In this document: positions 3,032 through 38,351 of the stretch, in pieces
Position numbering within the stretch: position 1 is the first letter of the stretch
Layout of the letters: each line of letters begins with the position of its first letter
Source: Candidatus Rifleibacteriota bacterium
Lineage (GTDB): Bacteria > Muiribacteriota > Ozemobacteria > Ozemobacterales > Ozemobacteraceae
Assembly (NCBI GenBank): GCA_015232575.1
Contig: JADFZL010000003.1
Span: forward strand, 192,001 to 256,000
Reading direction: 5' to 3'
DNA: 64,000 nucleotides
Made by a program: the position numbers and the translations under genes
Notes under the pieces: generated by a model
The model's input: only the letters and a program-made list of their open reading frames with translations
Told to the model about the DNA's origin: nothing
The model's database searches: none

Positions 3032-3090
3032 AACGACCCTTACCTTATTCAAGGCATAACCATGGACAGGGTAAGGGTTGTCGTTTTATG
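3032..3090. terminator. Hairpin AACGACCCTTACC...GGTAAGGGTTGTCGTT followed by TTTTAT
   Basis: 13-bp inverted repeat read directly. The T-run is on the + strand. It overlaps the selD stop codon. Confidence 0.4.
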
Positions 3091-4132
3091 AAACGATGAT
3101 TTTTTTCCCACCAGAATGCAGGACTTTGCCGACTATTGAATTTGTTACTTGTTTTTGGGAAAGCAAGTTGATAAGTAGTGGCAATTCCGATTCAGGAAGG
3201 GAAATCAGCAATCCTCCGGATGTCTGAGGATCGAACAATACATCTATCATATCCAGAGCAATCCCTGGATGAAAATCAATCATTCCCTGGCGGTATTTTT
3301 TATTGCGGTATGCACCGCCAGGTACCATTCCCATCTGTGCATATTCCAGAGCCTCAGGAATTATGGGAAGCGAAGAAGAATCTATTTCGACCGTCACATC
3401 TGAATTTTCAACCATTTCAGCAAGATGCCCCAAAAATCCAAACCCTGTTATATCTGTACATGCATTTGCTGAAACCTGCATCATTGCATGTGATGCTTCT
3501 CTGTTAAGAGTTATCATAATTGTTTCTGCAGTCTTTATTGCTTCGGCAGAAGCCAGATCTGCTTTGAGGGCGGTATTTATGATACCGGTGCCGAGTGGTT
3601 TTGTCAGTACAAGTGAATCACCCGGCTTCATTCCGGAATTTCGAAGAAACTTGTCCGGATGAACAATTCCGGTGACAGAAAGACCGTATTTTATTTCTTT
3701 GTCGGTAATGCTGTGGCCTCCGACAAGTGAAACCTGAGTTTCATTCAGAACGGCCAGACCACCTTTAATGATTTCACGAAGAACGCTCAAATCCAGTCCA
3801 TCAGATGGAAATGCCACTAGATTCATTGCTGTGACAGGTTTGCCGCCCATTGCGTAGACATCGCTTAAAGCATTTGCAGCAGCAATTTTTCCGAAGGTAA
3901 ATGGATCGTCAACAATTGGTGTGAAAAAATCTACCGTTTGTACAAGAGCTATTTCATTTGTAAGCTTAAAGATTCCAGCATCTTCATTGCCTTTGAAGTC
4001 AGCAAGAGTCTGCGGGCTTTTATAATACACAAGTCCGCACAGAGCTTTATCCAGCAACTCTGGATTCAACTTAGCTGCTCAACCGGCAGCGGTAGCCATG
4101 CTTGTAAGTCTAATAATGTTTTTTTCGTTCAT
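3086..4132 (-). CDS. selD: Selenide, water dikinase SelD (selenoprotein; in-frame UGA-Sec at 4081..4079)
   Basis: The track ORF 3086..4069 begins with TTG inside the gene. Manual extension in the same frame gives MNEKNIIRLTSMATAAG-U-AAKLNPELL, where TGA sits at the position of the catalytic Cys/Sec of SelD (E. coli GAGCGCK). ATG at 4132. Confidence 0.85.
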
Positions 4133-4272
4133 TGTATTATCCTTATTATGATATTGTACATCTGATGAAATAAAATAAGTTTGAGAACCCTTACCGCCAA
4201 AAATAATTTAATTGTATATGAATTTCCATTTTAGTTATGCGTGTTTCCGAAAATGATAACATCAATTCAAAC

Positions 4273-4381
4273 GGCCTTGTAACGATTTCATATTCGTTGT
4301 TTTCCAGGGTGCATTACCGTATTTTCTACTTATTCTAACCTTTCGGATATCTCTACCTTCGGTCGAGATGACAATAAATAG
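4273..4381. repeat. Intergenic palindromic repeat (MITE-like family), copy A
   Basis: Shares CCTTGTAACGATTTCA...GTGCATTAC...ATTTTCTAC...ACCTTTCGGA.ATCTCT...GGTCGAGATGACAA.AAATAG with copy B at 5881..6023. Confidence 0.7.
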
Positions 4382-4401
4382 TTCGCCTGGAGGGCGATAA
4401 T

Positions 4402-4638
4402 TTAAACATTCCAGACATGAATTTCTTCGAATTCAACATTGTTATTATTAAAAATTGCTAATGAAGCTTCTTTGTTTTTTGAATCTATGCAAATGGCAAC
4501 TCCGCAATCAGAGCTGAATTCTCTAGGTGTTGGAATAGTTTCGAATGATATGCCAACCGATTTAAGAGCTTTTTCAGCTTTTAATGCAAAATAACTTGAA
4601 TAAAATGTGAAAACAATTTTCACTTTTTGAAAATCCAA
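4402..4638 (-). CDS. DUF3343-family small protein (selenium/sulfur-metabolism associated)
   Basis: 78 aa with a conserved SSDCG motif. Paralogue of 16222..16473. Lies between csd and selD. Confidence 0.6.
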   Translation of the reverse strand: MDFQKVKIVFTFYSSYFALKAEKALKSVGISFETIPTPREFSSDCGVAICIDSKNKEASLAIFNNNNVEFEEIHVWNV

Positions 4639-4699
4639 CTTTCATTTTTTTGCATGTGATTTTACTTTGCTTTTTTAATTTGTGATCTCATGCAAGCAT

Positions 4700-5848
4700 T
4701 CAGGCAAAGATAATCGATTTTAAGGATTCAATAAAGAAAATAATATTTTCTTTCGTTGTGAAAAAGCCTGGGCTTAATCGTACTGTTCCGCCTGGATAGG
4801 TACCTGTAGTTTTGTGTGCCAGTGGAGAACAATGAAGACCAGTTCTCGTCATAATCGAAAATTCTTTATCTAGTTTATGTCCGATTGTTGAAGAATTGAT
4901 TCCGACAACATTAAAGGAAATTGTACCAGTTCTGTCAGCGGAATTATCTGGTCCGTATACTTTTACTTCTTTGATTTCAGAAAGCATATCCAAAGTTAAT
5001 TTTGCAAGAGAAATTTCATGTTCATGGATATTTTCAATGCCGATTTCGTTAATAAAATTTACTCCGGCAGCAAGACCAGCGATTCCCGGGGTATTTGGAG
5101 TTCCACTTTCGAGACTGTCAGGAAGAAACTCAGGTTGAACTTCAAGTTCAGAATTGCTTCCCGTTCCGCCTTGTAAAAGAGATTCTAATTGTATGTTTTT
5201 TCCAATACAGATTCCGCCGATACCCTGTGGGCCAAGCATTGATTTGTGACCTGTAAACGTAAGAATGTCGATAAAATCTTTTTCTATATGAATCGGAATT
5301 AGTCCGGCAGTTTGAGCTGAATCAACCATGAAAGTGATATTTTTTTTTCTGCAGAAAGCGCCAATCATCTTCAGAGGTTGTAATGCTCCGGTAACATTCG
5401 AGGCGTGTGAAACGACGAGAAGCTTTGTTTTTTCAGAAATTTCATTCAAAAAAGATTCATCAGAAAGAATTCCGAATTTATTTGCCTTGAGAACGTTGAT
5501 TTTGATTCCGATTTTTTGCTCAAGATTTCTGAGCGGACGCATGACCGAATTATGTTCAAGTCCTGATACTGAAACGCTATCGCCTGCATTCAACAATCCT
5601 TTTAAGGCAATATTTATTGCGTGCGTAGCATTTGAAGTAAAAACAAGACGCTGCGAATCTGATAATCCGAAAAATGAAGCCAGTTGCTCTCTTGCATTAA
5701 AAATAAGTCTTGCTGCATCAAGCGACATGGCGTGTCCTGACCGACCCGGGTTCCCACCGGTTTGTTGCATGCACCTGCACACAGCATCAATTACAGCTGG
5801 AGGTTTCGGCCAGGACGTAGCGGAATTATCAAGATAAACTAAGTTCAT
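4700..5848 (-). CDS. Class V aminotransferase: cysteine desulfurase / selenocysteine lyase family
   Basis: PLP-enzyme motifs (TGHKSMLGPQGIGG). Resembles the cysteine-desulfurase family commonly adjacent to selD. Likely start ATG 5848 (MNLVYLDNSATS); the track starts at TTG 5878. Confidence 0.75.
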   Translation of the reverse strand: MNLVYLDNSATSWPKPPAVIDAVCRCMQQTGGNPGRSGHAMSLDAARLIFNAREQLASFFGLSDSQRLVFTSNATHAINIALKGLLNAGDSVSVSGLEHNSVMRPLRNLEQKIGIKINVLKANKFGILSDESFLNEISEKTKLLVVSHASNVTGALQPLKMIGAFCRKKNITFMVDSAQTAGLIPIHIEKDFIDILTFTGHKSMLGPQGIGGICIGKNIQLESLLQGGTGSNSELEVQPEFLPDSLESGTPNTPGIAGLAAGVNFINEIGIENIHEHEISLAKLTLDMLSEIKEVKVYGPDNSADRTGTISFNVVGINSSTIGHKLDKEFSIMTRTGLHCSPLAHKTTGTYPGGTVRLSPGFFTTKENIIFFIESLKSIIFA

Positions 5849-5880
5849 TGTATAGGAATTTTCATAATATGAATTCAACC

Positions 5881-6023
5881 CCTTGTAACGATTTCAGATT
5901 CATTGTCTTCCAGAGTGCATTACTGCATTTTGCTGTCATTTCGACCGAAGGGAGAAATCTCGTATTTTCTACCTGATCTGACCTTTCGGAGATATCTCTC
6001 TTTGGTCGAGATGACAAAAATAG
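5881..6023. repeat. Intergenic palindromic repeat (MITE-like family), copy B (full length with TIRs TGTCATTTCGACCGAAGG / CTTTGGTCGAGATGACA)
   Basis: Terminal inverted repeats and internal palindromes read directly. Matches copies A, C and D. Confidence 0.7.
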
Positions 6024-6044
6024 TCCGCTAGAATGGCGTTAATT

Positions 6045-6263
6045 TCACTGATTTTTCAGGAGAAGTTTGAAAGTGTCGTCTGATGAATCAAGCATTTCAA
6101 CTTTCCAACCTTCTTTATTGGACATTCTGGAAACATTCTCAACGGCTGCTTCTGAATCAACAATTACTTCAATTTCGCCCGTTTTCATTTCTCTGATTTT
6201 TTTCAGGGTTATGAGTACTGGTTGTGGGCAGGAAAGCCCTCTGGCATCAATTAATTCAGGCAT
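6045..6263 (-). CDS. yedF: TusA-like sulfur/selenium carrier YedF (short form, CPxP motif)
   Basis: GLSCPQP motif. 72 aa. Adjacent to yedE. Confidence 0.75.
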   Translation of the reverse strand: MPELIDARGLSCPQPVLITLKKIREMKTGEIEVIVDSEAAVENVSRMSNKEGWKVEMLDSSDDTFKLLLKNQ

Positions 6264-7359
6264 TTTTTCCTCCTGTAGATTTTTCTCTCATGAATAACCC
6301 GATAATAAGACAGAATACAAGACCTGCAATAACTGCAGTGGAGCCATTCTTTCCCAAACCATCGGGTGAACTTGCAAGCATGAAGTTATGAGAAAACGCT
6401 GCACCAGTAATCAATCCAAATGAAAATACTGCCGCATCGCCGTCACCTTCACCTGACAGAAACAACTGTCTTCCGGGACATCCACCTGCAAGGCAGAACG
6501 CAAATCCGGAAAGAACCATTCCAAGAAAGTTCCACAAAGAATCGACGTGGGCAATTGGCTGTCCAGACATTCCCGGGTTAAACTTTCCAATCACAAGATT
6601 GAATATGAAAGCAGCAGCTACTAATGACAATATTCCAGAAAATAGGTGGAACTGTTTGAACAAAATTAAATCTCTTATGGCACCCACTGTACAAAATCTG
6701 CTTCTCTGTGCAAGAAAGCCAATCAGCAAGCCAGCTGCAATTGAAAAATATAACGGCGCATGCATTGAGCCGGGTCCTTTAAGACTGTAAAAGATAAAAC
6801 CGCTGCTTTCTTTATCTGCAATTTGAGGATTCATGAAAAGTGCTGCCAGCAAAAGAACCATAAGACCAGGCATTATCAACCCTGTCGGAAAAGACGTTTT
6901 TTCTGATCTTCCAAGTGTGTATCCGCTTCTCAAAAATAAAGTGCCTGCAAAGACGCCGGTAAAGAGTCCGAGGAAACCAATAACAGCGTTAAGATCACCT
7001 GCCGATATTCGCAGAAGAGCTCGCCATGGGCAGCCTAAAAATACAAGTGCTCCGATCATCGCGAAAACTCCAAGCATGAATCGAACCAAAGGGCTTGAGC
7101 CGCCTCTCGGCTTGAATTCAGAAAACAAAAGTGCCGAAAGAAAAGATCCCAGTACAAAACCTGGTATTTCAGGCCTTATGTATTGTACAAGGGCAGCCTT
7201 GTGCAATCCAAGCGCACCGGTTACGTCCCGTAGAAAGCATGCAACGCAGACACCCATGTTTCCAGGGTTTCCCATTTTCTGAAGAAAAACCGCTGTTAAT
7301 CCAATAATAGCACCAACAACGATAATTCCAGTACTCGACGAAAAAAAATTCTTCTTCAA
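6256..7359 (-). CDS. yedE: YedE/YeeE-family membrane protein (putative selenium compound transporter)
   Basis: Polytopic membrane protein with the duplicated YedE-type repeat. Located between selB and yedF. Confidence 0.75.
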   Translation of the reverse strand: MKKNFFSSSTGIIVVGAIIGLTAVFLQKMGNPGNMGVCVACFLRDVTGALGLHKAALVQYIRPEIPGFVLGSFLSALLFSEFKPRGGSSPLVRFMLGVFAMIGALVFLGCPWRALLRISAGDLNAVIGFLGLFTGVFAGTLFLRSGYTLGRSEKTSFPTGLIMPGLMVLLLAALFMNPQIADKESSGFIFYSLKGPGSMHAPLYFSIAAGLLIGFLAQRSRFCTVGAIRDLILFKQFHLFSGILSLVAAAFIFNLVIGKFNPGMSGQPIAHVDSLWNFLGMVLSGFAFCLAGGCPGRQLFLSGEGDGDAAVFSFGLITGAAFSHNFMLASSPDGLGKNGSTAVIAGLVFCLIIGLFMREKSTGGKNA

Positions 7360-7362
7360 CTT

Positions 7363-9321
7363 CTATTCCTCCTGTTTTGGTTTGTTGATATTCGTTTTCA
7401 AAAACCTGAAATCGCCGTCTCTTCTGGTCAAACCTTCAGCATCAAAGTGTGCAAGCAGCAGCAGAGAAATCTTTCTATTTCCATTAACTAAATCTCTGAA
7501 ATCACTGACTTTTATGCCTTCTTTTTGTCCAGAAAGCTTTTCAATCAGTTTATTTCTGCAAGCACTAACAACCGAGGAATGAACATAACTGTCTTCGATT
7601 TTAATTATTTTTCCGGAAGAGACAAAGTGATGAAGTATTGCTTTCAGTTCTTTTTCAGCAATATTTTCTTTGTCAGCCAGAGATTGTATTTGGCTTGAGA
7701 GCGGGGTTTGCATTCCGCATTCCAGGAAGTAATTTTCCATCACCCGAACATTTTTTGCTGTTTTTGGATCAACCTTTCCTGTGTCATCAGCTGCAAACCA
7801 TGTTTTTGAAGATTCACGAAGTTTTTCTTTTTCAACAAGACCATTTAATATAGCCAGAAGGATCTCATCTGAAGATGATTTCTTTTCGAGCTTTAGTGTA
7901 CTTCTTATTTCATCAATGTTAATTCCTTTTTCAGAAAGCGGATTTCTCTTTCTGAAATCTTTAACTGCGGTTAAAATTCCGTTTCTGATATTTTCAAGAC
8001 ATATCTGTGAAACCAGCACCGGAGAGTCTTTTGTGTCGTATCGTACAATTCCTCTTAAAATTCTACTGTCTACTAACCTTAAAATACTATCAATGGAAAT
8101 ATTCAGCTTTTCTGCAATTTCCCTTACCATCATGGGCTTAAGTGATTTTCTTACTTCAAGTGATATAAGTTCAGAAAGTTTATTTTTTGCAACGAGTTCA
8201 AGTTCATTAATTAGTTTTTCAGGTCTTCGCCTGTGATGAAGCGGGGCAGCATCAATTATTTCTCCGCCGCCAATGGTTAAATCACAGGACGAATTTCGTA
8301 TTACAAATTTATCTCCATGTTGAAGGTAGATCGGCGTTTCAAAATGAATTTGTACAAGTGCAGATTCGCCGGTAGTAATTCTATTTTTGTTTATCAGGTG
8401 AATTTTTACCTGATGTTCGTAAGTACCGGTGTGAAAAATTACCTTTGACCAGATTCCAAGTTCACACTTTTTGGCGTACACATTTAATTTCGCATCTGCA
8501 ATGAGCGCATTTTTCAGTATTCTGTCTGATATTATCAGTCCGCGAGAAAATTCAGCTTTTTCAAGTCCGACAAGATTTATTGAAGCTCTGTCGCCAGCTT
8601 GAACTGCATGAACTTCCTCGCCATGTCTTTCCATTCTTCTGACTCTGAGTTCGCGCGGATTCTGGGACAAAAGAAATACATTGTTTTCCTTTTCAATTTT
8701 TCCGCCGATTACTGTTCCGGTTACAATTGTTCCGAAACCGCTTTTGCTGAATATCCGGTCAATGTACATGCGGAAAATGCCCTCAGGTGAACGGCTTTCG
8801 GAAGCTGAATAAATTTTCTGGATGGTATCTTTAAGTTCTGCAATTCCCTGACCGGTTTTTGCAGAGACTTTAATAATGGGGGAATCTTTCAGGAAAGAGT
8901 TACTAAGTAAATCAATAACATCAATTTCGCAGAGTTCAAGGAGTTCGTCATCTACCAGATCTGATTTGGTAAGTAAAACAATGCCTTTTTTTATTCCTAG
9001 GATTTCCATGATCTGGAGGTGTTCGATGGTCTGAGGCATTACGCTGCTGTCGGCAGCTATGACAAGTAGAACAAAGTCAATACCTGCTGCACCGCTGACC
9101 ATTGTATGGATAAAATCACGGTGCCCTGGTACATCAATGATTCCGATTTTTCCGTCATCGGGCATTGGAAGGCTTGCAAAGCCAAGGTGAATGGTGATTC
9201 CGCGCTCTTTTTCTTCTTTGTGCGTATCGCACTCAATGCCAGTGAGAGCCTTGATTAATGCTGTTTTTCCATGATCGACGTGACCCGCCGTTCCCATAAT
9301 GAGGTGTTTCACGTCCGCCAC
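7363..9321 (-). CDS. selB: Selenocysteine-specific elongation factor SelB
   Basis: GTPase motifs (GHVDHGKT, DVPGH, TKSD) plus a long C-terminal winged-helix extension. 652 aa. Confidence 0.9.
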   Translation of the reverse strand: MADVKHLIMGTAGHVDHGKTALIKALTGIECDTHKEEKERGITIHLGFASLPMPDDGKIGIIDVPGHRDFIHTMVSGAAGIDFVLLVIAADSSVMPQTIEHLQIMEILGIKKGIVLLTKSDLVDDELLELCEIDVIDLLSNSFLKDSPIIKVSAKTGQGIAELKDTIQKIYSASESRSPEGIFRMYIDRIFSKSGFGTIVTGTVIGGKIEKENNVFLLSQNPRELRVRRMERHGEEVHAVQAGDRASINLVGLEKAEFSRGLIISDRILKNALIADAKLNVYAKKCELGIWSKVIFHTGTYEHQVKIHLINKNRITTGESALVQIHFETPIYLQHGDKFVIRNSSCDLTIGGGEIIDAAPLHHRRRPEKLINELELVAKNKLSELISLEVRKSLKPMMVREIAEKLNISIDSILRLVDSRILRGIVRYDTKDSPVLVSQICLENIRNGILTAVKDFRKRNPLSEKGINIDEIRSTLKLEKKSSSDEILLAILNGLVEKEKLRESSKTWFAADDTGKVDPKTAKNVRVMENYFLECGMQTPLSSQIQSLADKENIAEKELKAILHHFVSSGKIIKIEDSYVHSSVVSACRNKLIEKLSGQKEGIKVSDFRDLVNGNRKISLLLLAHFDAEGLTRRDGDFRFLKTNINKPKQEE

Positions 9322-10724
9322 CTCTCGAAAACGGCTTTTTCGATGATTGATGCGATATATGGAATATCGTCCTCGTCGATTGTAAGTACATCAAAAACCA
9401 GTTCGCCCTGCCTGAGTATTCCCAGTATAGGCTTTTCAACGTTGAGAAGGTTGTGAAAAACGCGCGTTGCAAAGTCAGAGCGTTTCTGTTGAGACTTTTC
9501 TGACGAAGAAATTACAACGCCGAAACTTTTAATTTCAAGGTCGGGAAGGGTGCCACCGCCGCATTTTCCGGTAGTTTCAATTATTTCGGAAGAAATATTT
9601 TTTTCCTGCAGTTTATCATACAACAGTTTGGCTTTCTGATGGAGCTGTTTGTCGGTAGAATTCAGCATGGCAAATAGAGGAAGATTTTCTGCTATTTTCT
9701 TTTCATCCAGATAACACCTGGCAACGCTTGTCAATGTAGTAATGGTAAGCTTACAGACTCGTAAAGCCCGCATCAGCGGAGCTTTACTTAATCTACCAAC
9801 CAGATCTTTCCGTCCGCAGATTATTCCGGATTGCGGTCCACCGAAAAGTTTGTCGCCGCTGAAGAGAACCAGGTCAACTCCGCTTGATAAGGCGGACTTT
9901 ACATCGGGTTCATTTGAAAGCGGTATATTTTCCGGCTTGTACAAGAGTCCCGAACCGATATCATAAACGACAATCATTCCCCTTTTTTTTGCAAGTTCGA
10001 CAAGATCATCAAGTGACACTTCTTCAGTGAAACCATTGATCGAATAATTCGATTTATGCGCCTTAAATAAAATTTTTGTGTCGGCGGTAATAGCATTTTC
10101 ATAGTCAGAAATTCGTGTTCTGTTTGTTGTTCCGACTTCAATCATTTTTGCGCCTGAAGTTCCCATGATATCAGGAATTCTGAATGAACCGCCTATTTCT
10201 ATTAATTCACCGCGTGAAACAATGACTTCTTTATTTTTTGCAAGAGTACTTAGAGTTAATATGAGTCCGGCAGCGTTATTATTTACCACCAGAGCTTCTT
10301 CTGCGCCGGTAATATACTTTAGAATGGAATTAACATGTACGCTTCGGCTTCCACGGGTACCAGTTTCAAGATTCAATTCAAGGTTGGAATATCCGGACAG
10401 TGTTTCTGTGAGTTCTTCAAATATTCTTTTCCCGATAGGTGCTCGGCCAAGGTTTGTATGAATCAGAATTCCGGTAGCATTTATAACCCTGCGCAGAGAA
10501 GGACTGGATATATCTTTCGATACCTTTATAGCTTCTTCGATAATTTCATCTGAGCCTGGAACATCATCAAACTGATCATCAAGAATGCTTTTTCTAAGGG
10601 AATCAAGTGTTGAACGAAGCGAATGTTTAATTGTTTCAGAACCATATAAAGCGACTGCCGCAGATATTTTTTCATCCTGCAGAAGCTTATCAACGCCCGG
10701 AATCAATCGGAGTTTCTCTTTCAT
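9309..10724 (-). CDS. selA: L-seryl-tRNA(Sec) selenium transferase SelA
   Basis: SelA hallmark NATGILIHTNLGRAP; PLP-enzyme. Likely start ATG 10724 (MKEKLRLIPGV). Overlaps the selB start. Confidence 0.85.
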   Translation of the reverse strand: MKEKLRLIPGVDKLLQDEKISAAVALYGSETIKHSLRSTLDSLRKSILDDQFDDVPGSDEIIEEAIKVSKDISSPSLRRVINATGILIHTNLGRAPIGKRIFEELTETLSGYSNLELNLETGTRGSRSVHVNSILKYITGAEEALVVNNNAAGLILTLSTLAKNKEVIVSRGELIEIGGSFRIPDIMGTSGAKMIEVGTTNRTRISDYENAITADTKILFKAHKSNYSINGFTEEVSLDDLVELAKKRGMIVVYDIGSGLLYKPENIPLSNEPDVKSALSSGVDLVLFSGDKLFGGPQSGIICGRKDLVGRLSKAPLMRALRVCKLTITTLTSVARCYLDEKKIAENLPLFAMLNSTDKQLHQKAKLLYDKLQEKNISSEIIETTGKCGGGTLPDLEIKSFGVVISSSEKSQQKRSDFATRVFHNLLNVEKPILGILRQGELVFDVLTIDEDDIPYIASIIEKAVFERWRT

Positions 10725-10786
10725 ATTTTCCTGAAAATAATTAAATGCAGTCAATTATTGAATGATTGCATTTCAATAAAAATCAT

Positions 10787-10878
10787 CAGAGAGGGCAGGA
10801 ATCGAACCTGCCACAGACGGTATTATCCGCCCGCTACTGGTTTTGAAGACCAGCTGAAACACCAGTCCCGTCCTCTCC
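10787..10878 (-). tRNA. selC: tRNA-Sec (selC), anticodon UCA
   Basis: Reverse complement reads GGAGAGGACGGGACUGGUGUUUCAGCUGGUCUUCAAAACCAGUAGCGGGCGGAUAAUACCGUCUGUGGCAGGUUCGAUUCCUGCCCUCUCUG. It has a CUUCAAA anticodon loop, a long variable arm, a GGUUCGAUUCC T-loop and a ~92-nt length typical of tRNA-Sec. It lies immediately upstream of selA. Confidence 0.85.
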
Positions 10879-10972
10879 ATGCTTGTCTGTTAAGCGGACA
10901 AAATACTAAATGAAAAGAAACAAAAAGTCAACGAGTATTTTAATAATGAATTGAAAGCTGAATCATGGATTA

Positions 10973-16544: not shown

Positions 16545-16553
16545 TGAAAAATG

Positions 16554-19235
16554 CTACGCTTTTTCCAGTTTACATGCGCAGACTTTGAATTCCGGGATCT
16601 TTGCTTCCGGGTCGAGTGCATTTATGGTCAGTTTATTGGCAGGGGCCTCTGAAAAATGGAAAGGCACAAAAGCCGTACCCTTGGGAATTCGATCTGTTAC
16701 GAAAGCTTTTGTTGTTATGTTTCCTCTGCGTGTTGTGACTTTTATGTTATCACTGTTAGATATTCCCAGACCTTTGGCATCTTCGACTGAAATCATTACG
16801 TGTGGACCTGCGAGATTATTCAGTCCCTCGGATTTTCTTGTCATGGTTCCGGTGTGGAAGTGCTGTAGAACTCTTCCTGTTGTAAGATAAACCGGATAAT
16901 CATTGTCAGGTATTTCTGCGGGGTTTTTGAATGGAATCGGAAACATTGCACCTTTGCCCCTGGTAAATTTTCCAATATGCAAAACAGGGGTTCCCGGATG
17001 CTCTTTTGTTGGACATGGCCAATGCAGGCCATTTCCAGCAAGCCGTCTGTAATCCATTCCTGCGTAGCTTGGAGTGCACTTTGCTAATTCATTAAAAATA
17101 TCTTCTGCTGAGTTATATTTCCAATTGTGACCCATTTTATTGGCCAGAAGTTGATGAATCTGCCAGTCATCCTTTGCTTCTCCGGGTGGCTCAACAGCCT
17201 TATATAATACTTGTACCCTTCTTTCTGTGTTGGTAAATGTACCAAGCTTTTCCGGCCACGTGGTAGCAGGAAGTACAACATGTGCAAGTTTTGCTGTTTC
17301 TGTAAGGAAAATATCTTGTACAACAAGAAAATCAAGTTTATTAAGACCAGCTTCGACATGATGAAGATCAGGGTCACTAAGCATTGGATTTTCACCCATG
17401 ATGTAGAAAGCCTTCATTTCACCGTTGTAAGCTTTGTCGATTGCTGTTGTAAGGGTCAATCCGTTTTCGGCACTAAGTTGACAACCCCAGAATTTTTCAA
17501 ATTTTTCTTTAATTTCGGGAAGGATAACTTTTTGATACCCTGTGTAAACAACAGGCAAAGCTCCAACATCGCAGGCGCCCTGGACATTTGATTGTCCTCG
17601 GAGAGGGTTAACTCCTCCGCCAATTTTTCCCATATTACCACAAAGCATTTGGAGGTTTGCACACGATTTTACATTATCCACACCTGTGGTATGTTGCGTA
17701 ATACCCATAGAATAGTATATTGCAGCTGTACCTGCTTTTCCAAACATCTGAGCAATTGCCTCAAGAGTTTTTGCAGGAATGCCAGAAATCTGTTCGACAT
17801 ACTCTGGAGAATATTTTTCAACCTCTGCTTTCAGTGCTTCATATCCTTCACATCTTTCGGCAATAAATTCTTTGTCTTCCCAACCGTTCTTTATGATGAC
17901 ATTCATAATTCCGTTAAGAACCGCAACATCTGTCCCAGGTCTTTGTGAAGCGTATATTTTTGCATAATTTGCCATTTTTATTCGTTTGGGATCAATAACA
18001 ATTATCTTCATTCCATCTTTTGCTGCTTTTTTGAGACGCGCACCAATAACCGGGTGTGTTTCGGAGGTATCTGAGCCGATAATAAGTGCAACATCACTTC
18101 TACCTATTCCAGCATAATCATTTGTCATTGCACCCGAACCAAAAGATAATGCCAGACCGGCAACTGTTGATGCATGGCACAATCGGGCACAATGATCAAC
18201 ATTGTTTGTACCGATTACGGTTCTGATGAATTTTTGAAAAGTATAGTTTTCTTCATTCGTTACTTTAGCGGATGAAAAGCCCATTATTGAGTTTGCACCA
18301 TTCTTTTGCTTAATATCAGTTAGCCTCGTTGCAATTATATCAAGAGCTTCATCCCAGGAGGCTTTTCTGAATGATCCGTCGTCAGTTTTGATCAGTGGAG
18401 TTGTCAATCTATCCTTATGATCAACAAAATCGTAGCCAAAACGTCCCTTTACACACAGCATACCGTTGTTAGACGGTGAGCCTTCCAAACCATTTACACG
18501 AACGATTTTGTTCTGTTTTGCATCAACATGAATTTCCATCTGACATCCAACACCGCAATAAGGGCAGACGCTGACGACTTTTTTTGTGTCCCAGTAACGC
18601 GCCATTCCTTTGGCTTTATTTTCTGTTATTGCACCCACGGGACAAATTTGAGAACATTCACCACACTGAACACAACTAGAATCACCCATTTTCTTGTCGT
18701 CATCAAAAATGACTTCTGTTCTGTGTCCCCTGTATCCAAAATTCAAAACATCGTTTGTAACAGTATTTTGACAGGCAGAAACACATCTTCCACAAGCGAT
18801 GCATTTGTTGCGATTAACCTGAAGAAATTCGGAACTATCATCAATATTCGGTTCAAAATCTGCATAATTCAGTGATGGCTTTTCAATGCCGAGATAATAA
18901 GCCGCATCCTGAAGTTCGCACTTTCCATTTTGCTGGCAGGCGATACAATCATGCGTTCCATTCGAAAGTAGAAGATCAATAACAAGTTTCTGCCCTTCCA
19001 AAGCTTTTTGTGATTTTGTCTGAATATTCATTCCTTCTTTAACAATCACAGAGCAGGATGTCTGAAGTCCTTTCATTCCTTCAACTTCCACGACACATGC
19101 ACGACATTTCCCTGCAACGCCCACCTTTTCGTGATAGCATAGAGAGGGAATATAAACTCCGTTTTTTCTTGCTGCCAGAAGAATGGTTTGTCCATCTTCA
19201 ACATTCAGTTTTTTTCCATTAATGAAAATTTGCAT
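16554..19235 (-). CDS. fdhA: Formate dehydrogenase catalytic subunit, Cys-containing paralogue (N-terminal 2Fe-2S/4Fe-4S NuoG-like module + Mo/W-bisPGD domain)
   Basis: 893 aa. N-terminal ferredoxin-like Cys clusters and the molybdopterin oxidoreductase core. The active-site segment reads VDHCARLCHASTVAGL, with Cys where the paralogue has UGA. RBS GGAGGAA. Confidence 0.85.
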   Translation of the reverse strand: MQIFINGKKLNVEDGQTILLAARKNGVYIPSLCYHEKVGVAGKCRACVVEVEGMKGLQTSCSVIVKEGMNIQTKSQKALEGQKLVIDLLLSNGTHDCIACQQNGKCELQDAAYYLGIEKPSLNYADFEPNIDDSSEFLQVNRNKCIACGRCVSACQNTVTNDVLNFGYRGHRTEVIFDDDKKMGDSSCVQCGECSQICPVGAITENKAKGMARYWDTKKVVSVCPYCGVGCQMEIHVDAKQNKIVRVNGLEGSPSNNGMLCVKGRFGYDFVDHKDRLTTPLIKTDDGSFRKASWDEALDIIATRLTDIKQKNGANSIMGFSSAKVTNEENYTFQKFIRTVIGTNNVDHCARLCHASTVAGLALSFGSGAMTNDYAGIGRSDVALIIGSDTSETHPVIGARLKKAAKDGMKIIVIDPKRIKMANYAKIYASQRPGTDVAVLNGIMNVIIKNGWEDKEFIAERCEGYEALKAEVEKYSPEYVEQISGIPAKTLEAIAQMFGKAGTAAIYYSMGITQHTTGVDNVKSCANLQMLCGNMGKIGGGVNPLRGQSNVQGACDVGALPVVYTGYQKVILPEIKEKFEKFWGCQLSAENGLTLTTAIDKAYNGEMKAFYIMGENPMLSDPDLHHVEAGLNKLDFLVVQDIFLTETAKLAHVVLPATTWPEKLGTFTNTERRVQVLYKAVEPPGEAKDDWQIHQLLANKMGHNWKYNSAEDIFNELAKCTPSYAGMDYRRLAGNGLHWPCPTKEHPGTPVLHIGKFTRGKGAMFPIPFKNPAEIPDNDYPVYLTTGRVLQHFHTGTMTRKSEGLNNLAGPHVMISVEDAKGLGISNSDNIKVTTRRGNITTKAFVTDRIPKGTAFVPFHFSEAPANKLTINALDPEAKIPEFKVCACKLEKA

Positions 19236-19950: not shown

Positions 19951-19971
19951 AACTAATGGCTAATGAAAATA

Positions 19972-22656
19972 CTATGCTTTTTCCAGTTTACATGCGCAGA
20001 CCTTGTATTCCGGTATTTTTGCTTCCGGATCAAGTGCGTTAATGGTTAGTTTGTTGGCAGGAGCTTCGATGAAGTGGAAAGGCATAAAAGCAGTTCCTTT
20101 AGGAATTCGCTTTGTAACGAAAGCCTTAGTGGTAACGCTGCCGCGGCGGGTTGTTACTTTAACGGTTCCACTGTTTGAAACGCCTAGTTCAACGGCATCT
20201 TCTACTGAAATCATTACATGAGGTCCGGCAAGATTATTCAATCCTTCGGATTTTCTTGTCATGGTTCCGGTGTGGAAGTGCTGTAGAATTCTTCCGGTTG
20301 TCAGATAAACCGGATAGTCTTTGTCGGGTAATTCAGCGGGATCTTTGAATGGAATTGGGAATAATGTCCCTTTTCCCTTGGTGAATTTACCAATATGAAG
20401 AACAGGAGTACCAGGGTGTTCTTTTGTTGGACATGGCCAATGCAGACCTTTTCCTTCAAGTCTTTTGTAATCTAATCCGGCATAGCTCGGAGTGCATTTG
20501 GTCAATTCATCAAAGATATCTTCTGCGGTATTATATTTCCAGTTGTGACCCATTTTATTGGCCAGAAGTTGATGAATCTGCCAGTCATCTTTTGCTTCCC
20601 CGGGTGGTTCAACGGCTTTGTGCAACAATTGTACACGGCGTTCAGTATTAGTGAAGGTACCAAGTTTTTCGGGCCATGTACTGGCAGGAAGTACAACATG
20701 TGCCATTTTAGCTGTTTCCGTAAGGAAAATGTCTTCGACAACCAGGAAATCAAGCTTTTTGAGGGCTTCTTCAACATGGTGAAGATCTGGATCACTCAGC
20801 ATCGGATTTTCACCCATAATGTAGAATGACTTTACTTCTCCCTTGCCAGCTTTGTCTATGGCAACTGTAAGCGTTAATCCATTTTCAGCACTGAGCTGAC
20901 AACCCCAGAACTTTTCGAACTTTTCCTTGATTTCAGGAAGTGTAACTTTCTGATAAGCAGTGTAAACGACTGGAAGTCCGCCAACGTCACATGCGCCCTG
21001 GACGTTTGACTGTCCACGCAGCGGATTAACACCACCACCAACTTTACCCATATTGCCACAAATCATTTGCAGATTTGCACAAGATTTAACATTGTCAACA
21101 CCAGTGGTGTGCTGGGTAATGCCCATTGCGTAATAAATCGCTGCTGACTTTGCTTTTCCAAACATTTCTGCAATTGCTTCGAGGGTTTTTGCCGGGATAC
21201 CAGAAATCTTCTCAACGTGCTCAGGAGTGTATTTTTCTACTTCTGCTTTCAACGCTTCAAAACCTTCACATCTTTCAGCGATGAATTCTTTGTCTTCCCA
21301 GCCATTCTTGATGATTACATGCATAATTCCGTTAAGAACAGCAACATCTGTACCTGGTCTCTGAGCGGCATAGATTTTGGCGTAATCTGCCATTTTAATT
21401 TGTTTGGGATCAATAACAATTATTTTCAACCCATGTTTTGATGCCTTTTTCAAGCGGGCAGCAATTACCGGATGGGCTTCAGATGTATCGGAACCAATTA
21501 TTAGAGCAACTTCACTTTTACCAACTCCTGCGATATCATTTGTCATAGCTCCAGAACCAAAAGATGCGGCCAGACCGGCCACAGTGGAGCTGTGTCATAA
21601 TCGCGCACAGTGATCGACGTTATTCGTCCCTATCACTGTGCGAAAGAACTTTTGAAAAGTGTAGTTTTCTTCGTTTGTAACTTTTGCTGAAGAAAAACCC
21701 ATTAAAGAATTTGGACCATGTTTTTGTTTAATTTCAGAAAACTTTGTCGCTACTAATTCAATTGCTTCATCCCATGAAGCTTTTCTGAAAGAGCCATCAT
21801 TGTTTCTGATTAAAGGTGTAGTAAGTCTTTCCTTGTGATCTACAAAGTCATATCCAAAGCGGCCTTTTACACAAAGCATACCGTAATTGGATGGGGCGCT
21901 TTCAACGCCGTTGACCCGGACAATCTTGTTGATTTTCCGGTCGACATGAATTTCCATCTGGCAACCTACACCACAATAAGGACAAACTGAAGTCACTTTG
22001 TCAGTTTCCCAGTAACGCGCCATTCCTTTTGCTTTTTTCTCAGTTATTGCGCCAACTGGACAAATCTGAGAACATTCACCACACTGGACACAGGTGGAAT
22101 CACCCATCTTCTTGTCATCATCAAAAATGACTTCAGTGTTGTGTCCTCTGTAACCAAAATTCAAAACATCGTTTGTAACAGTATTCTGACATGCAGAAAC
22201 GCATCTTCCACAAGCGATGCACTTGTTTCGATCGACCTGAATAAATTCTGAGCTGTCATCAAGATTCGGTTCAAAATCAGCATAGTTCAATGAAGGTTTT
22301 TCAATGCCAAGATAATATGCGGCATCCTGAAGTTCGCACTTGCCGTTTTGCTGACAGGCAATACAATCGTGCGTTCCATTAGAAAGCAGAAGATCAATAA
22401 CAAGTTTCTGACCATCCACAGCTTTCTGGGATCTCGTCTGAATCTTCATTCCCTCTTTCACAATTACTGAACAGGATGTCTGAAGACCTTTCATCCCTTC
22501 AACCTCTACTACGCAGGCTCGGCATTTCCCTGCCACGCCAACCTTCTCATGGTAACAAAGAGAAGGAATATAAATTCCATTTTTCCTTGCGGCCTGAAGA
22601 ATGGTTTGCCCTTCTTCAGCCTGCAATTGCTTGTCATTGATGGTAATTAGCATCAA
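19972..22656 (-). CDS. fdhA: Formate dehydrogenase catalytic subunit, selenocysteine-containing (UGA-Sec at 21597..21595); the track shows it as two ORFs
   Basis: ORFs 21595..22656 and 19972..21582 are in the same frame, separated only by TGA. The joined translation VDHCARL-U-HSSTVAGLAAS aligns with the Cys paralogue's VDHCARL-C-HASTVAGL. A SECIS-like structure follows the UGA. Confidence 0.85.
21541..21594 (-). ncRNA. SECIS-like stem-loop immediately 3' of the fdhA UGA
   Basis: The RNA reads CACAG-CUCCA-CUGUG, then a 7-bp stem AGCUCCA...UGGAGCU enclosing GGCC-GGUCU-GGCC. The equivalent region of the Cys paralogue lacks this complementarity. Confidence 0.5.
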
Positions 22657-29380: not shown

Positions 29381-29432
29381 ACTGAGAGATCTCATAAATG
29401 CATGATTTCTCCTTTCGGTCGAAATGACATAG
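29381..29432. repeat. Intergenic palindromic repeat (MITE-like family), copy C (partial, inverted orientation)
   Basis: Reverse complement TGTCATTTCGACCGAAAGGAGAAATCATGCATTTATGAGATCTCTCAGT matches the left half of copy D. Confidence 0.6.
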
Positions 29433-33059: not shown

Positions 33060-36000
33060 ATGAGAGGTTTTATGATTATGAGAAAGAATATATTCTTTTT
33101 TCTTTTTCTTTTATTGCTCCCTATTACATGTTTGATTATTTTGGGTTGTAGTGGCGGTGGCAGTGATGCAACCGGAGTCGGAGGTTTAAATACGGTTGGT
33201 CCAGTTGAGGAAGGACCGATTGTACAACGCTTAAATTTTTTTGCTAAAGACTTAGCTGAAGGAAATTTAATAGCTGCACAGTCTCATTTCTCTCCAACCT
33301 TTCGTTCAAATTCCTCTGGACAATTGCAGTCTCTTGCTGTTTACGACTTTGGAAGGAAAATTGGATCAAGTACTGATAACACCTTATTTCTCTTTGAAAT
33401 CGCACCTGGTGGAATAACTCAGCTTTCCACTGTTGATGCTACTGTCAAAGCCAATTTTATAATGAATGATTCCACCCGGATCGTGCTGGTCTTTCAGATG
33501 ATAAAGCATTACGGTGATTGGCTGATTGACGATATAAAAGTAACGATTTCTTCGGGTGAAAGTTTTCCTGCCAGCACTTTTTTTCCTATTCAATCTGGCG
33601 ATTACTGGAAATTTCAGATAAGCGATTCGAGAATAGGCGAAATTCGAGATTTTACAATTACTGTTTCTTCGGAATCACGCGTTATTGATGGCAAAAGAGT
33701 TGTGTATCTGGAATGTTCATCAGCTGTAAGGCAATCTGTCGGGGTTTCTTCGAGAGCATCTATTCTCAATCCTGGTGGAATTAACCGTTTAACATGGGGT
33801 TTCTCAAATGACGGTGGTTTGTGGAATTATGGTGCCCTTTCTGATTCATCCTATTCATTCAATGATGGAAAACCTCTGAAAATTCTTGACGAGCAATTCA
33901 GAGCCGGAGATATCGCAACCTGGACTGTCAGTGAAAAATTCGGGAACCTTGTTTATACAAAACAAATCGTAATACAGGTTAAACAGCCAGTACTAATTAA
34001 TTCAGTATTTGGTTCAGTTAAGGCTTTAACAATACGCTTTGTATGGCACTATCTAAATGGTATGTCACCTGATGGTGTTTTGGCAGGCGGAGAAGAATGG
34101 TATTTACGTGAGAATTTTGGACTTATCGGCTTTATGGAGTTTGATCCCGATTCAGGAGAAAGCTTGACTAAATCTGAATGTGTAGATGTGAAGATTGATG
34201 GAGTTGTCCAGAATCAAGTTGCGATGGTTCTCATGAAAACTACACTTCCTGAAAGCATTTCTGGACAATCTTATTCAAACCCCTTCACAGTAATAGGCGG
34301 TGTACCGCCGTTTTCTTTCCGGATTGCATCTGGAACCCTTCCTGATGGTATAACCCTGCTTGACTCAGGTGTTCTTTCCGGAATTCCGCTTTCAGGAGGA
34401 AAATATAACATTTCTATAAATGTAACAGATTCATCTGGACTCTCTGATTATGAAGATTTCGAACTCTCGGTAATACCAATGAAAATATCCTGTGTTCTTC
34501 CATTGACAGCATTTCTGAGTGAGAGTTGGAACCAGAAACTAACAGTGGTAGGTGGTGTTCAGCCTGTTACCTGGAAAATTTCCTCTGGAGCACTTCCGAC
34601 TGGTTTAAAGATAGTTCAGCCTGATATTATATCTGGTATCATTACAGCTACGGGGACATTTGAATTTACCTTGAAAGCTTCTGATGCAAATAGTTTTGCA
34701 GTTGAAAAAGAATATACTGTCCAGGTAAGCGATGACCTGGTCATTACTGCTGAGATTCCCTCTTCAGTGACTGTAAATTCCCTTATAAATGGTAAGTATA
34801 TTTCTTCTGGCGGAAATCCTCCATATTTTTACAGCATCCAGGAAGGAACTCTTCCAAAAGGTGTTGTTTTGTCTAATGCCGGTGTTTTGTCAGGAATTCC
34901 TGTTGAAAGTGGAATTTTCAACTTTGTTGTGAGGGTTTTGGATTCCAAAGACAGGACAGCTCAAACTACATCTATTCTTAAAGTTCAATCACCTGAAGAA
35001 AATTCCCTTATTATTTCGACATCTTCTATCGCTCAGCAGACCAACATTTTTGCGTCTTTCACTGCATCTTTATCAGCAAGTGGAGCGGCGGGAGGATTGC
35101 ATTGGGAAAAGTTGTCTGGTAATATTCCGCCAGGCATGACTCTTCTGCCAAATGGCTCTCTTACGGGTGTTCCAACGAGCGTTGGCTCATATTCGTTTGT
35201 TGTCAAAGCAACTGATTCACTTGGAAAATCTGGAACTGCAGAAATTAAATTAAATGTGGTTAACGATTTAAACGTAATAGCGTCAATTCCGACAACTGGC
35301 CAGGTAAACTCTTCTTTTTCAGGTTCGTTTAATGCCAGTGGTGGATTTCCGCCTTATTTGTTTCACATTTCAAGCGGAAATCTTCCGTCTGGACTAGCTT
35401 TGAGTGCAGATGGTAAGATTTCAGGTACTCTTACGGCCGAGGGCAATTATACATTTTCAGTTACAGTAACTGATTCAAAAGGTTTATTAGCAATTAATAA
35501 TGCTTCAGTACAAGTTATTCCGGCTAATCCAGCACCTGTTCCCAATCCTGATCCTGTACCTGAGGCTACTTTTTCAATCGTTATTTCATCAGTAATTCCA
35601 ACCGCAAATCTTTGTGCAACGTACAGCGCAAATCTGCAATTCCTGAATGGTTCAGCTCCAATTTCTTCGACAATTTCTTCAGGAAGCCTGCCGGATGGAA
35701 TAACTCTTTCCGATAACTGCTTATCTGGTATTCCGATTACTTCTGGAACATATTTCTTTGAAATTATTGCTTCAGATACTCTTGGAAAAATTGCCACCGC
35801 TACTTTTTCAATTCAGGTTAGTAACTCTACTAATCCAAATCCTCCCATAATTTCAATAGCAGCAACTTTGAGTAACACCCCGGAGAATCCAACGAATCAG
35901 ACAACCGCATCAATAACAGTAGGCGGAATAGACGTTGTAAAGTATTCTTACAGTCTTAACGATGGAACATGGAGCCCTGAAACACCCATTTCAACTATTT

Positions 36001-38025: not shown

Positions 38026-38089
38026 TGTCATTTCGACCGAAGGAAGAAATCTCGCATTATGAGATTTCTTACGTTCATTCGAGATGACA
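38026..38089. repeat. Intergenic palindromic repeat (MITE-like family), copy D
   Basis: TGTCATTTCGACCGAAGGAAGAAATCTCGCATTATGAGATTTCTTACGTTCATTCGAGATGACA, with terminal and internal inverted repeats. Confidence 0.7.
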
Positions 38090-38266: not shown

Positions 38267-38334
38267 AAGAACGCATCTATGCGCTTTTTTATAAAACAAA
38301 CCTGCGGAAGTATATCTTCCGCAGGTTTGTTTTA
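38267..38334. terminator. Tandem hairpins forming a bidirectional terminator (GAACGCATCTATGCGCTTTTTT; AAAACAAACCTGCGGAAG-tatat-CTTCCGCAGGTTTGTTTT)
   Basis: Perfect 18-bp stem flanked by A-run and T-run, lying between convergent genes. Confidence 0.7.
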
Positions 38335-38351
38335 TAAGAATAAAATATTGG

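Follow-up and report, generated by a model that had tools for sequence, protein, structure and literature searches.

The question raised by this locus is what kind of sequence interrupts an otherwise compact operon. The stretch of DNA analysed here (the window, 64 kb of a Candidatus Riflebacteria metagenome-assembled genome, MAG) carries on its minus strand a selenium-utilisation (sel) operon embedding eight genes, from tRNA-Sec to selD. These genes overlap or are spaced by 3-61 nt, with two exceptions, i.e., the 196 nt ahead of csd and the 269 nt ahead of selD, which are occupied by copies B and A, respectively, of a palindromic repeat that is found at two further sites of the window, C and D. 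A first-pass annotation made from the letters of the window had described the four copies as a family resembling MITEs (miniature transposable elements with inverted repeats), and had suggested that A and B might act on selD and csd as RNA hairpins affecting processing, stability or regulation, or might represent a small non-autonomous mobile element. On the basis of the comparative analysis reported below, the repeats are probably copies of Ssn-related motifs (SRMs, of the SRM/NTS type), that is, TGTC-tagged repetitive extragenic palindromic (REP) sequences of the CGTC type, which lack a gene of their own and would have accumulated in intergenic DNA.

The comparison of the four sites revealed that they share one unit of 27-28 nt, TGTC-ATYTC-GA-CCGAAGG-GA-GARAT-C, present in six copies: one at site A, an inverted pair at site B, one plus a remnant at site C, and a compact inverted pair at site D. 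The family as a multi-copy palindromic repeat is established, in agreement with the first-pass annotation, whose quoted sequences were all found where it had placed them. The 18-nt arm TGTCATTTCGACCGAAGG, allowing up to three mismatches, occurs five times in the window versus 0.06 expected, none of 100 shuffles reached five, and a sixth, more degenerate arm (D-R, 38061-38089) closes element D. The intergenic location proposed for the family holds at all four sites. All six units start with TGTC-AT, and the base at position +1, right after the palindrome, is C in B-R, C, D-L and D-R and A in A and B-L.

Element D (38026-38089) is located between convergent genes; in it, unit D-L (38026-38053, plus strand) is followed by a 7-nt loop and by D-R on the minus strand; the whole forms a nearly perfect 64-nt hairpin (-31.4 kcal/mol, z -6.4). 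In copy B, the unit B-R (TGTCATTTCGACCGAAGGGAGAAATCTC, 5934-5961, plus strand) matches exactly the cross-phylum consensus, and its partner B-L (TGTCATCTCGACCAAAGAGAGATATCTC, 5989-6016, minus strand) is degenerate, with three mismatches, a shortened inner stem and the A at +1; the two form a hairpin of about 85 nt that, folded as DNA on the plus strand, reaches z -5.0. The folding check proposed by the first-pass annotation is positive for both B and D. Site C hosts a singlet (TGTCATTTCGACCGAAAGGAGAAATCAT, 29402-29429, minus strand), antisense to the two plus-strand genes on either side of it, and what is left of a second arm, a stub of its inner end (about 29381-29396). The last copy, A, had been counted in the palindromic family; it does hold a unit of the family, the singlet TGTCATCTCGACCGAAGGTAGAGATATC (4346-4373, minus strand; ATCTC/GAGAT stem subtype), and this is a single unit rather than a pair. 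When the single window units were folded as single-stranded DNA (ssDNA), the minimum free energy structure was the expected hairpin.

The unit is by no means confined to this organism. Scanning one representative genome per species with the 25-mer TGTCATYTCGACCGAARGNAGARAT retrieved exact matches in at least 113 genome stretches from about 12 phyla. The matches listed include Flavobacterium isolates, Ignavibacteria, several orders of Desulfobacterota, Anaerolineae, Dehalococcoidia, Gammaproteobacteria, Planctomycetota, Binatia, Omnitrophota, Calditrichota, Bdellovibrionota, Nitrospirota, other Riflebacteria and one Bathyarchaeota MAG. What these loci have in common is the arm of about 27 nt only, the loops and the flanks being variable, and the arm can be drawn as the hairpin TGTC / ATTTC GA CC-GAA-GG GA GAAAT / C. 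The existence of this hairpin is established by covariation. Indeed, when candidates were chosen by their 5' half alone, so that pairing was not imposed, the outer stems of 145 distinct sequences combined as TTTC/GAAA (81), TTCC/GGAA (31), TCCC/GGGA (7) and TCTC/GAGA (5), with 18 off-diagonal cases. The inner stem also covaries (CC..GG, GC..GC, AC..GT, GGCC..GGCC, CCCCC..GGGGG), mostly around a GNA triloop. The +1 base, which lay outside the search pattern, is C in all of the 133 distinct units of other genomes. As for their location and arrangement, units fall inside long open reading frames (ORFs) in 25% of cases versus 83% for the background, and they occur as common singlets, as inverted pairs with loops of 10-90 nt whose partner arms often belong to different subtypes, in tandem arrays and in nested or partial form. 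Viral contigs gave four unit matches only, which argues against an element that is mainly phage-borne.

Some of these loci show additional features. At eight of them, from several phyla (L018, L100, L046, L071, L067, L091, L002 and L007) the unit pair is enclosed by a second conserved inverted repeat, AATTAGTGYCTGAACGAAAA ... TTTTCGTTCAGRCACTAATT. Among 97 pairs, an outer inverted repeat of at least 8 nt was present in 29%, versus 5% of controls, and it may represent either a larger composite element or a preference of the insertions for palindromes. Runs in tandem of the unit's 5' half alone (TGTCATTTCGACC followed by about 8 variable nt, with a period of about 20 nt) adjoin full units or the nuclease gene described below (L078 1650-1760, L096 5166-5230, L098 4400-4450 and 5100-5150, L110 7720-7830, L114 3330-3450). 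Lastly, the Candidatus Bathyarchaeota MAG (L017, 3206-3288) harbours a complete inverted pair on a contig binned as archaeal, and a nearly identical element is present in a Gammaproteobacteria MAG (L083); this could be due either to a binning error or to a transfer between domains.

No match to the sequence of the unit itself was found in the literature, and its identification came from the genes adjoining it. Clustering all the ORFs of the 113 loci listed revealed a single family that is specifically adjacent to units. It encodes a protein of about 100 aa with the motifs YxVYILTN...YIGxTNNLxRRxxEHK...REKEIKKWRRxKK, whose only Pfam domain is GIY-YIG. The other recurrent clusters (two-component, type IX secretion system-tail and ABC proteins) were taken as background. 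The GIY-YIG ORF adjoins units in 6 of the 113 loci: it lies between the members of an inverted pair in Flavobacterium panacis (L050), a planctomycetote (L067) and a gammaproteobacterium (L078), and between two units of the same orientation in another gammaproteobacterium (L098) and in a member of the Anaerolineales (L081); in the sixth (L007, Thermodesulfobacteriota) the contig ends within the gene. In L067, L078 and L007 a TGTCAT-oriented unit is placed 2-40 nt ahead of the start codon. The same layout was recovered starting from the protein, since all three independent loci selected in this way carry a unit just ahead of the start codon (degenerate in L114), with a second unit, inverted, at the gene's 3' end. 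The association of the gene with the units is thereby established at nine loci outside the window, six selected by DNA and three by protein; at five of the nine, the gene is enclosed by an inverted pair.

Homologues of this protein number thousands, and the best 120 of them, sharing 76-92% identity, include a Dissulfurimicrobium isolate, Thermosynechococcus and a Chloroflexi MAG. In their spacing, the residues Y9, Y20 and E67 of the unit-associated nuclease agree with Y6, Y17 and E64 of SsnA from Neisseria meningitidis. Many database entries for the nuclease are 110-165 aa long rather than about 100, in at least some cases since the ORF was called with an upstream extension that runs through the unit; at L078, for instance, the translation ahead of the start codon passes through the unit and reads ...VISTEGRNP.

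It is the nuclease that links the window repeats to a known system. In Neisseria, the NTS sequence, CGTCATTCCCGCGMAVGCGGGAATCYRG, which contains the dRS3 core, belongs to a wider class of motifs, the SRMs, that flank ssnA, the gene for a 94-aa single-domain GIY-YIG protein (cd10448); SRMs lie near 71% of its homologues (Chenal et al. 2025, Nat Commun 16:2388, PMC11893778). SsnA binds the hairpin as ssDNA only, accepting a single orientation, and its cut falls a few nucleotides upstream of the hairpin; the enzyme acts neither on double-stranded DNA nor on RNA, and RNA is not bound. Cutting is influenced by the three bases ahead of the palindrome, and the most crucial base for binding is the C that follows it (PMC11893778). 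The window units resemble SRMs in being directional hairpins in which a (C/T)GTC tag precedes a palindrome that starts with AT and is directly followed by a C. The NTS consensus CGTCATTCCCGCGMAVGCGGGAATCYRG and the unit also match in the tag, in the AT start of the palindrome and in the ATC end. The SRM-ssn-SRM layout around a single-domain GIY-YIG protein of about 95-105 aa is found at the loci outside the window, and the likeness extends to the equal Y, Y, E catalytic spacing, to the wide phylogenetic spread and to the hundreds of mostly intergenic copies. One difference concerns the stem, which is ATTTC-GA-CC/GG-GA-GAAAT here and contains two G.A mismatches, its loop being a GAA triloop, whereas the Neisseria stem, ATTCCCGCG/CGCGGGAAT, is fully paired. 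Canonical units almost identical to the NTS consensus, such as TGTCATTCCCGCGAAAGCGGGAATCCAG, share loci with TTTC-type units at six related loci from environmental genomes and viral contigs (L119 6107-6134, L051 3486-3513, L078 2310-2337, L116 5675-5707, L118 2973-3003, L017 2803-2835). Riflebacteria are not mentioned in the main text of PMC11893778. The units are probably of a known kind, SRM/NTS or CGTC-type REPs with Ssn nucleases, and they are found here in a lineage and in a subtype that lie beyond the published pattern.

The description of the CGTC REPs also agrees with the units in most respects. These sequences have a TGTC variant of the tag, stems of 8-9 bp that start with A-T/T-A, loops of 4-5 nt and a dimeric form; they are found near ORF 3' ends, where the neighbouring genes are co-directional or converge, and include the Rickettsia elements RPE-4/-6 as well as dRS3 itself, as family CGTC-1, and neither a dedicated transposase nor any associated protein was found for them (Di Nocera et al. 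2013, BMC Genomics 14:522, PMC3733652). The units share with them the TGTC tag, the A-T/T-A stem start, a short unpaired tail starting with C, the presence of both singlets and inverted dimers (spacers of 20-100 nt), and the location at gene ends. The length of the unit stem, nine positions (seven Watson-Crick pairs and two G.A), also fits, but the stem contains an internal G.A tandem and is closed by a 3-nt GNA loop instead of one of 4-5 nt. A further parallel is offered by the neisserial intergenic mosaic elements (NIMEs), in which dRS3 bounds the repeat segments. Likewise, the two composites A and B combine, as mosaics, unit(s) and other locally repeated segments, i.e., the spacer and the 45-nt module described below, with the difference that only two copies of these non-unit segments are visible.

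Several observations weigh against the assignment to the SRM/NTS type. No ssn homologue was found within the 64-kb window. The published pattern HGTCWYN(0-2)YYVSBRHN(0-5)WNVSBRGN(0-2)RNCYNB has no strict match in the window, the units being two or three substitutions off because of the two G.A stem positions; their attribution to a divergent SRM subtype is due to the gene association and not to that pattern. Canonical units at six of the related loci do match it. Moreover, single units are marginally stable (-1.2 to -4.5 kcal/mol), no better than shuffles. Compared with NCBIfam and the Protein Data Bank, the nuclease shows weak similarity to UPF0213 and to group-I-intron endonucleases, with an NCBIfam hit below threshold and, in the Protein Data Bank, a weak hit to UPF0213. 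Finally, the 45-nt module and the spacer of A and B are not explained by the SRM identification.

How did copies A and B come to lie inside the operon? Each of the two is part of a larger composite on the minus strand. Composite A (about 127 nt, 4275-4401) fills most of the 269-nt gap between the Se/S-carrier gene and selD, and composite B (about 164 nt, 5881-6044) most of the 196-nt gap between the tusA-like gene and csd. Their alignment starts directly past the upstream stop codons, reaches a CAAGG end that both have in common and contains 107 identities out of 126 (85%), so that the homology of about 110 nt pointed out by the first-pass annotation is real and longer than claimed. The order of the parts is the same in both: a weak hairpin followed by a T-run, a unit of the ATCTC/GAGAT subtype, a spacer of 27-28 nt and a 45-nt module. 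In composite A these correspond to the small terminator-like hairpin and T-run (4383-4397), unit A, a 28-nt spacer and the module at 4275-4317; in composite B the module, GTAATGCACYCTGGAARACAAYGAATMTGAAATCGTTACAAGG, occupies 5881-5925 on the minus strand. The sole indel between the two, 37-38 nt in length, corresponds to one canonical unit plus 10 nt (B-R with 10 nt of its 5' flank, 5924-5960), which makes B the same mosaic as A with one extra unit. Another Riflebacteria MAG (L006) contains the ATCTC/GAGAT subtype as well.

The extra 5' part that the first-pass annotation recognised in A and B is shared by the two and lies outside the widespread element. Indeed, the 45-nt module is common to A and B only; it gave no match in the metagenome contigs of the Joint Genome Institute (JGI), and neither it nor the spacer was found in the 113 other loci listed. 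The hypothesis that the module is a decayed unit was also considered and rejected, its similarity to the unit being not significant (p about 0.35-0.99 versus shuffles). At the other end of each composite (A, 4383-4397, minus strand; B, 6026-6038), directly past the stop codon, a short GC hairpin is followed by ACTATTT(A/T)TT; the A copy was flagged as terminator-like by a scan, and the B copy is weaker. Apart from this weak hairpin and T-run just upstream of unit A, scans for promoter and terminator consensus sequences around A and B gave no enrichment.

The status of A and B as insertions, which the first-pass annotation had proposed, is established by comparison with three other sel operons, whose Csd proteins are 52-56% identical to the window one: an operon from Margulisiibacteriota, one from Spirochaetota with the same yedE-csd-carrier-selD order, and one on a JGI contig. 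The corresponding gaps measure from -10 to 84 nt, versus 196 and 269 nt here, and none of the three operons carries units. These short and unit-less gaps imply that A and B are insertions.

The idea that A and B are cis-acting RNA hairpins of the sel operon, which by processing, by protection from 3' exonucleases or by attenuation of read-through would tune the expression of csd and selD relative to selA and selB, is in our opinion unlikely. Both copies lie on the transcribed strand 29 nt past stop codons, a typical placement for REPs that separate co-directional genes; a small hairpin and a T-run precede unit A, the two composites preserve 85% identity including a 45-nt module not found elsewhere, and the B region folds with -48 kcal/mol (z -2.5). 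The stability of the A region as a whole does not exceed that of shuffles (z +0.7), however, and the long hairpins lack a U-tract. Besides, the same unit occurs at unrelated loci of the window, once antisense to its neighbours, and in about a dozen phyla. The differences between the arms of B point in the same direction, since all four are transitions, read as A.C in the mRNA sense and as G.T on the antisense strand; a bias of this kind would arise by chance about once in 16 and is a weak hint. The module, being present in two copies only, is too scarce for a covariation analysis. An Rfam scan of the window at gathering scores returned only tRNA-Sec, and a permissive scan of 4100-6100 gave chance-level hits, such as generic miRNA hairpins far below threshold. 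If we also consider that SsnA does not bind RNA (PMC11893778), there is no positive evidence for the regulatory or processing hairpins that the first-pass annotation attributed to selD and csd, and on present evidence A and B are not a sel-specific regulatory device.

A classical MITE, that is, a deletion derivative of an insertion sequence (IS) with a DDE transposase, moved by cut-and-paste through its terminal inverted repeats, would account for the inverted ends of 26-28 nt and for the length of 64-85 nt of B and D. Such an origin appears very unlikely in view of the lack of consistent target-site duplications: direct repeats of at least 8 nt flank 12% of 97 pairs versus 3% of controls, they are mostly due to tandem arrays, and they have no fixed length. 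Furthermore, singlets are common, partner arms are often of another subtype, and no transposase family recurs among the 113 loci listed, where the only unit-specific ORF family is the GIY-YIG nuclease. In the strict sense, then, the MITE designation of the first-pass annotation does not apply to what is a tagged, REP-like hairpin of about 27 nt. Its broader idea of a small non-autonomous element fares better, in that a cassette with a gene exists of which the short copies are the gene-less counterparts, although the associated protein is a GIY-YIG nuclease, probably an ssDNA-specific one of the Ssn type, and not a transposase. A match in architecture is given by the REPs, their doublets (REPINs) and the bacterial interspersed mosaic elements (BIMEs) of Gammaproteobacteria, which combine a tagged hairpin read as ssDNA by a small nuclease-type protein, a gene flanked by repeats, inverted doublets folding into long hairpins, clusters and an intergenic location. 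Mobilisation by a REP-associated tyrosine transposase (RAYT), an IS200/IS605-like enzyme, can hardly be credited, though. The tag is TGTC rather than GTAG, the gene flanked by units has a GIY-YIG fold instead of that of an HUH Y1 transposase, no Y1-transposase family recurs among the 113 loci, CGTC REPs have no dedicated transposase (Di Nocera et al., PMC3733652), and REPs are usually lineage-specific, whereas the 25-mer is identical across phyla. Other candidates were rejected from the sequence alone, namely a CRISPR array, for which spacing and arms are wrong, an integron attC site, multi-site ends of the Tn7 or IS21 type, and a sigma-54 promoter.

Returning to the SRM/NTS-type assignment, the following scenario can be proposed. 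The unit would be a directional DNA hairpin of about 27 nt, made up of the TGTC tag, a 5-bp stem, the tandem G.A/A.G, an inner stem that is short and carries a GNA loop, and the C after the palindrome, and the short copies of the window would be gene-less relatives of an SRM-ssn-SRM cassette. A mosaic of about 127 nt containing one such unit may have been placed twice in the sel operon, and one of the two composites (B) might then have gained, or kept, a second and perfectly canonical unit. B-R, C, D-L and D-R, the canonical copies, seem intact and are probably still recognised by an Ssn nuclease of the source organism. Conversely, the A at +1 in A and B-L and the shortened inner stem of B-L suggest that these two are decayed nuclease sites. 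As regards the sel genes, any effect of the copies would be incidental, amounting at most to mRNA hairpins and to cut sites for incoming or exposed ssDNA. REPs are known to affect mRNA decay passively, and it is possible that the hairpins influence the stability or decay of the sel mRNA in the same passive way.

A more far-reaching interpretation is that unit and GIY-YIG gene form an actively mobile, horizontally transferred selfish cassette, whose modules of about 37 nt (a unit with about 10 nt of 5' flank) are copied beside existing units or into hairpin loops. We regard this as a rather doubtful possibility, with which some data are compatible: the sole indel between A and B consists exactly of a consensus unit with 10 additional nt, across phyla the 25-mers are nearly identical and the nucleases share 63-92% identity, 29% of the pairs are nested in outer palindromes, and half-units form tandem runs. 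If it were true, it would represent a REP-type spread driven by a GIY-YIG ssDNA nuclease and not by a transposase.

As far as the meaning of these results is concerned, the reading of A and B as a selenium-operon leader, or a riboswitch-like element, is replaced by a documented repeat system, and the finding alone opens no new biological question. It does reveal that the published search pattern misses a very common SRM subtype, the one with G.A in its stem, and that this subtype is common to a dozen phyla almost base for base, along with a highly conserved nuclease. It also reveals that units of the SRM type can occur within essential operons. From a practical viewpoint, the annotation of MAGs can benefit, given that the units are often translated as spurious ORF extensions, and the choice of new Ssn/target pairs for ssDNA tools may be guided by the subtype.

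The operon itself is read entirely from the minus strand. It begins with tRNA-Sec (10787-10879), the sole Rfam match above the gathering score in the window, and continues with selA (9309-10754), selB (7363-9321), the gene for a YedE-like transporter (6256-7359), that for a TusA/YedF-like protein (6045-6263), csd (4700-5848), coding for a NifS/Csd-like desulfurase, the Se/S-carrier gene (PF11823, DUF3343; 4402-4638) and selD (3086-4132). The nearest homologue of the Csd protein from another source shares 56% identity with it. The eighteenth codon of selD is an in-frame UGA (4079-4081, ...TAAG-U-AAK...), which implies that SelD is itself a selenoprotein here, and ORF callers will cut the gene short, to 327 aa.

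A few other features of the window may be mentioned. Element D lies 92 nt past the stop codon of an ORF of 1624 aa (33060-37934), which embeds four tandem repeats of 267 nt (35854-36949) that are 60-79% identical. Near element D, and again between convergent genes, a 25-nt inverted repeat (38286-38340; 96% complementary, with a 5-nt loop and A/T-rich flanks) looks like a bidirectional terminator. Finally, the segments 16548-18876 and 19966-22294, separated by 3418 nt from each other according to their start coordinates, are 80-87% identical, which suggests the tandem duplication of a gene block.

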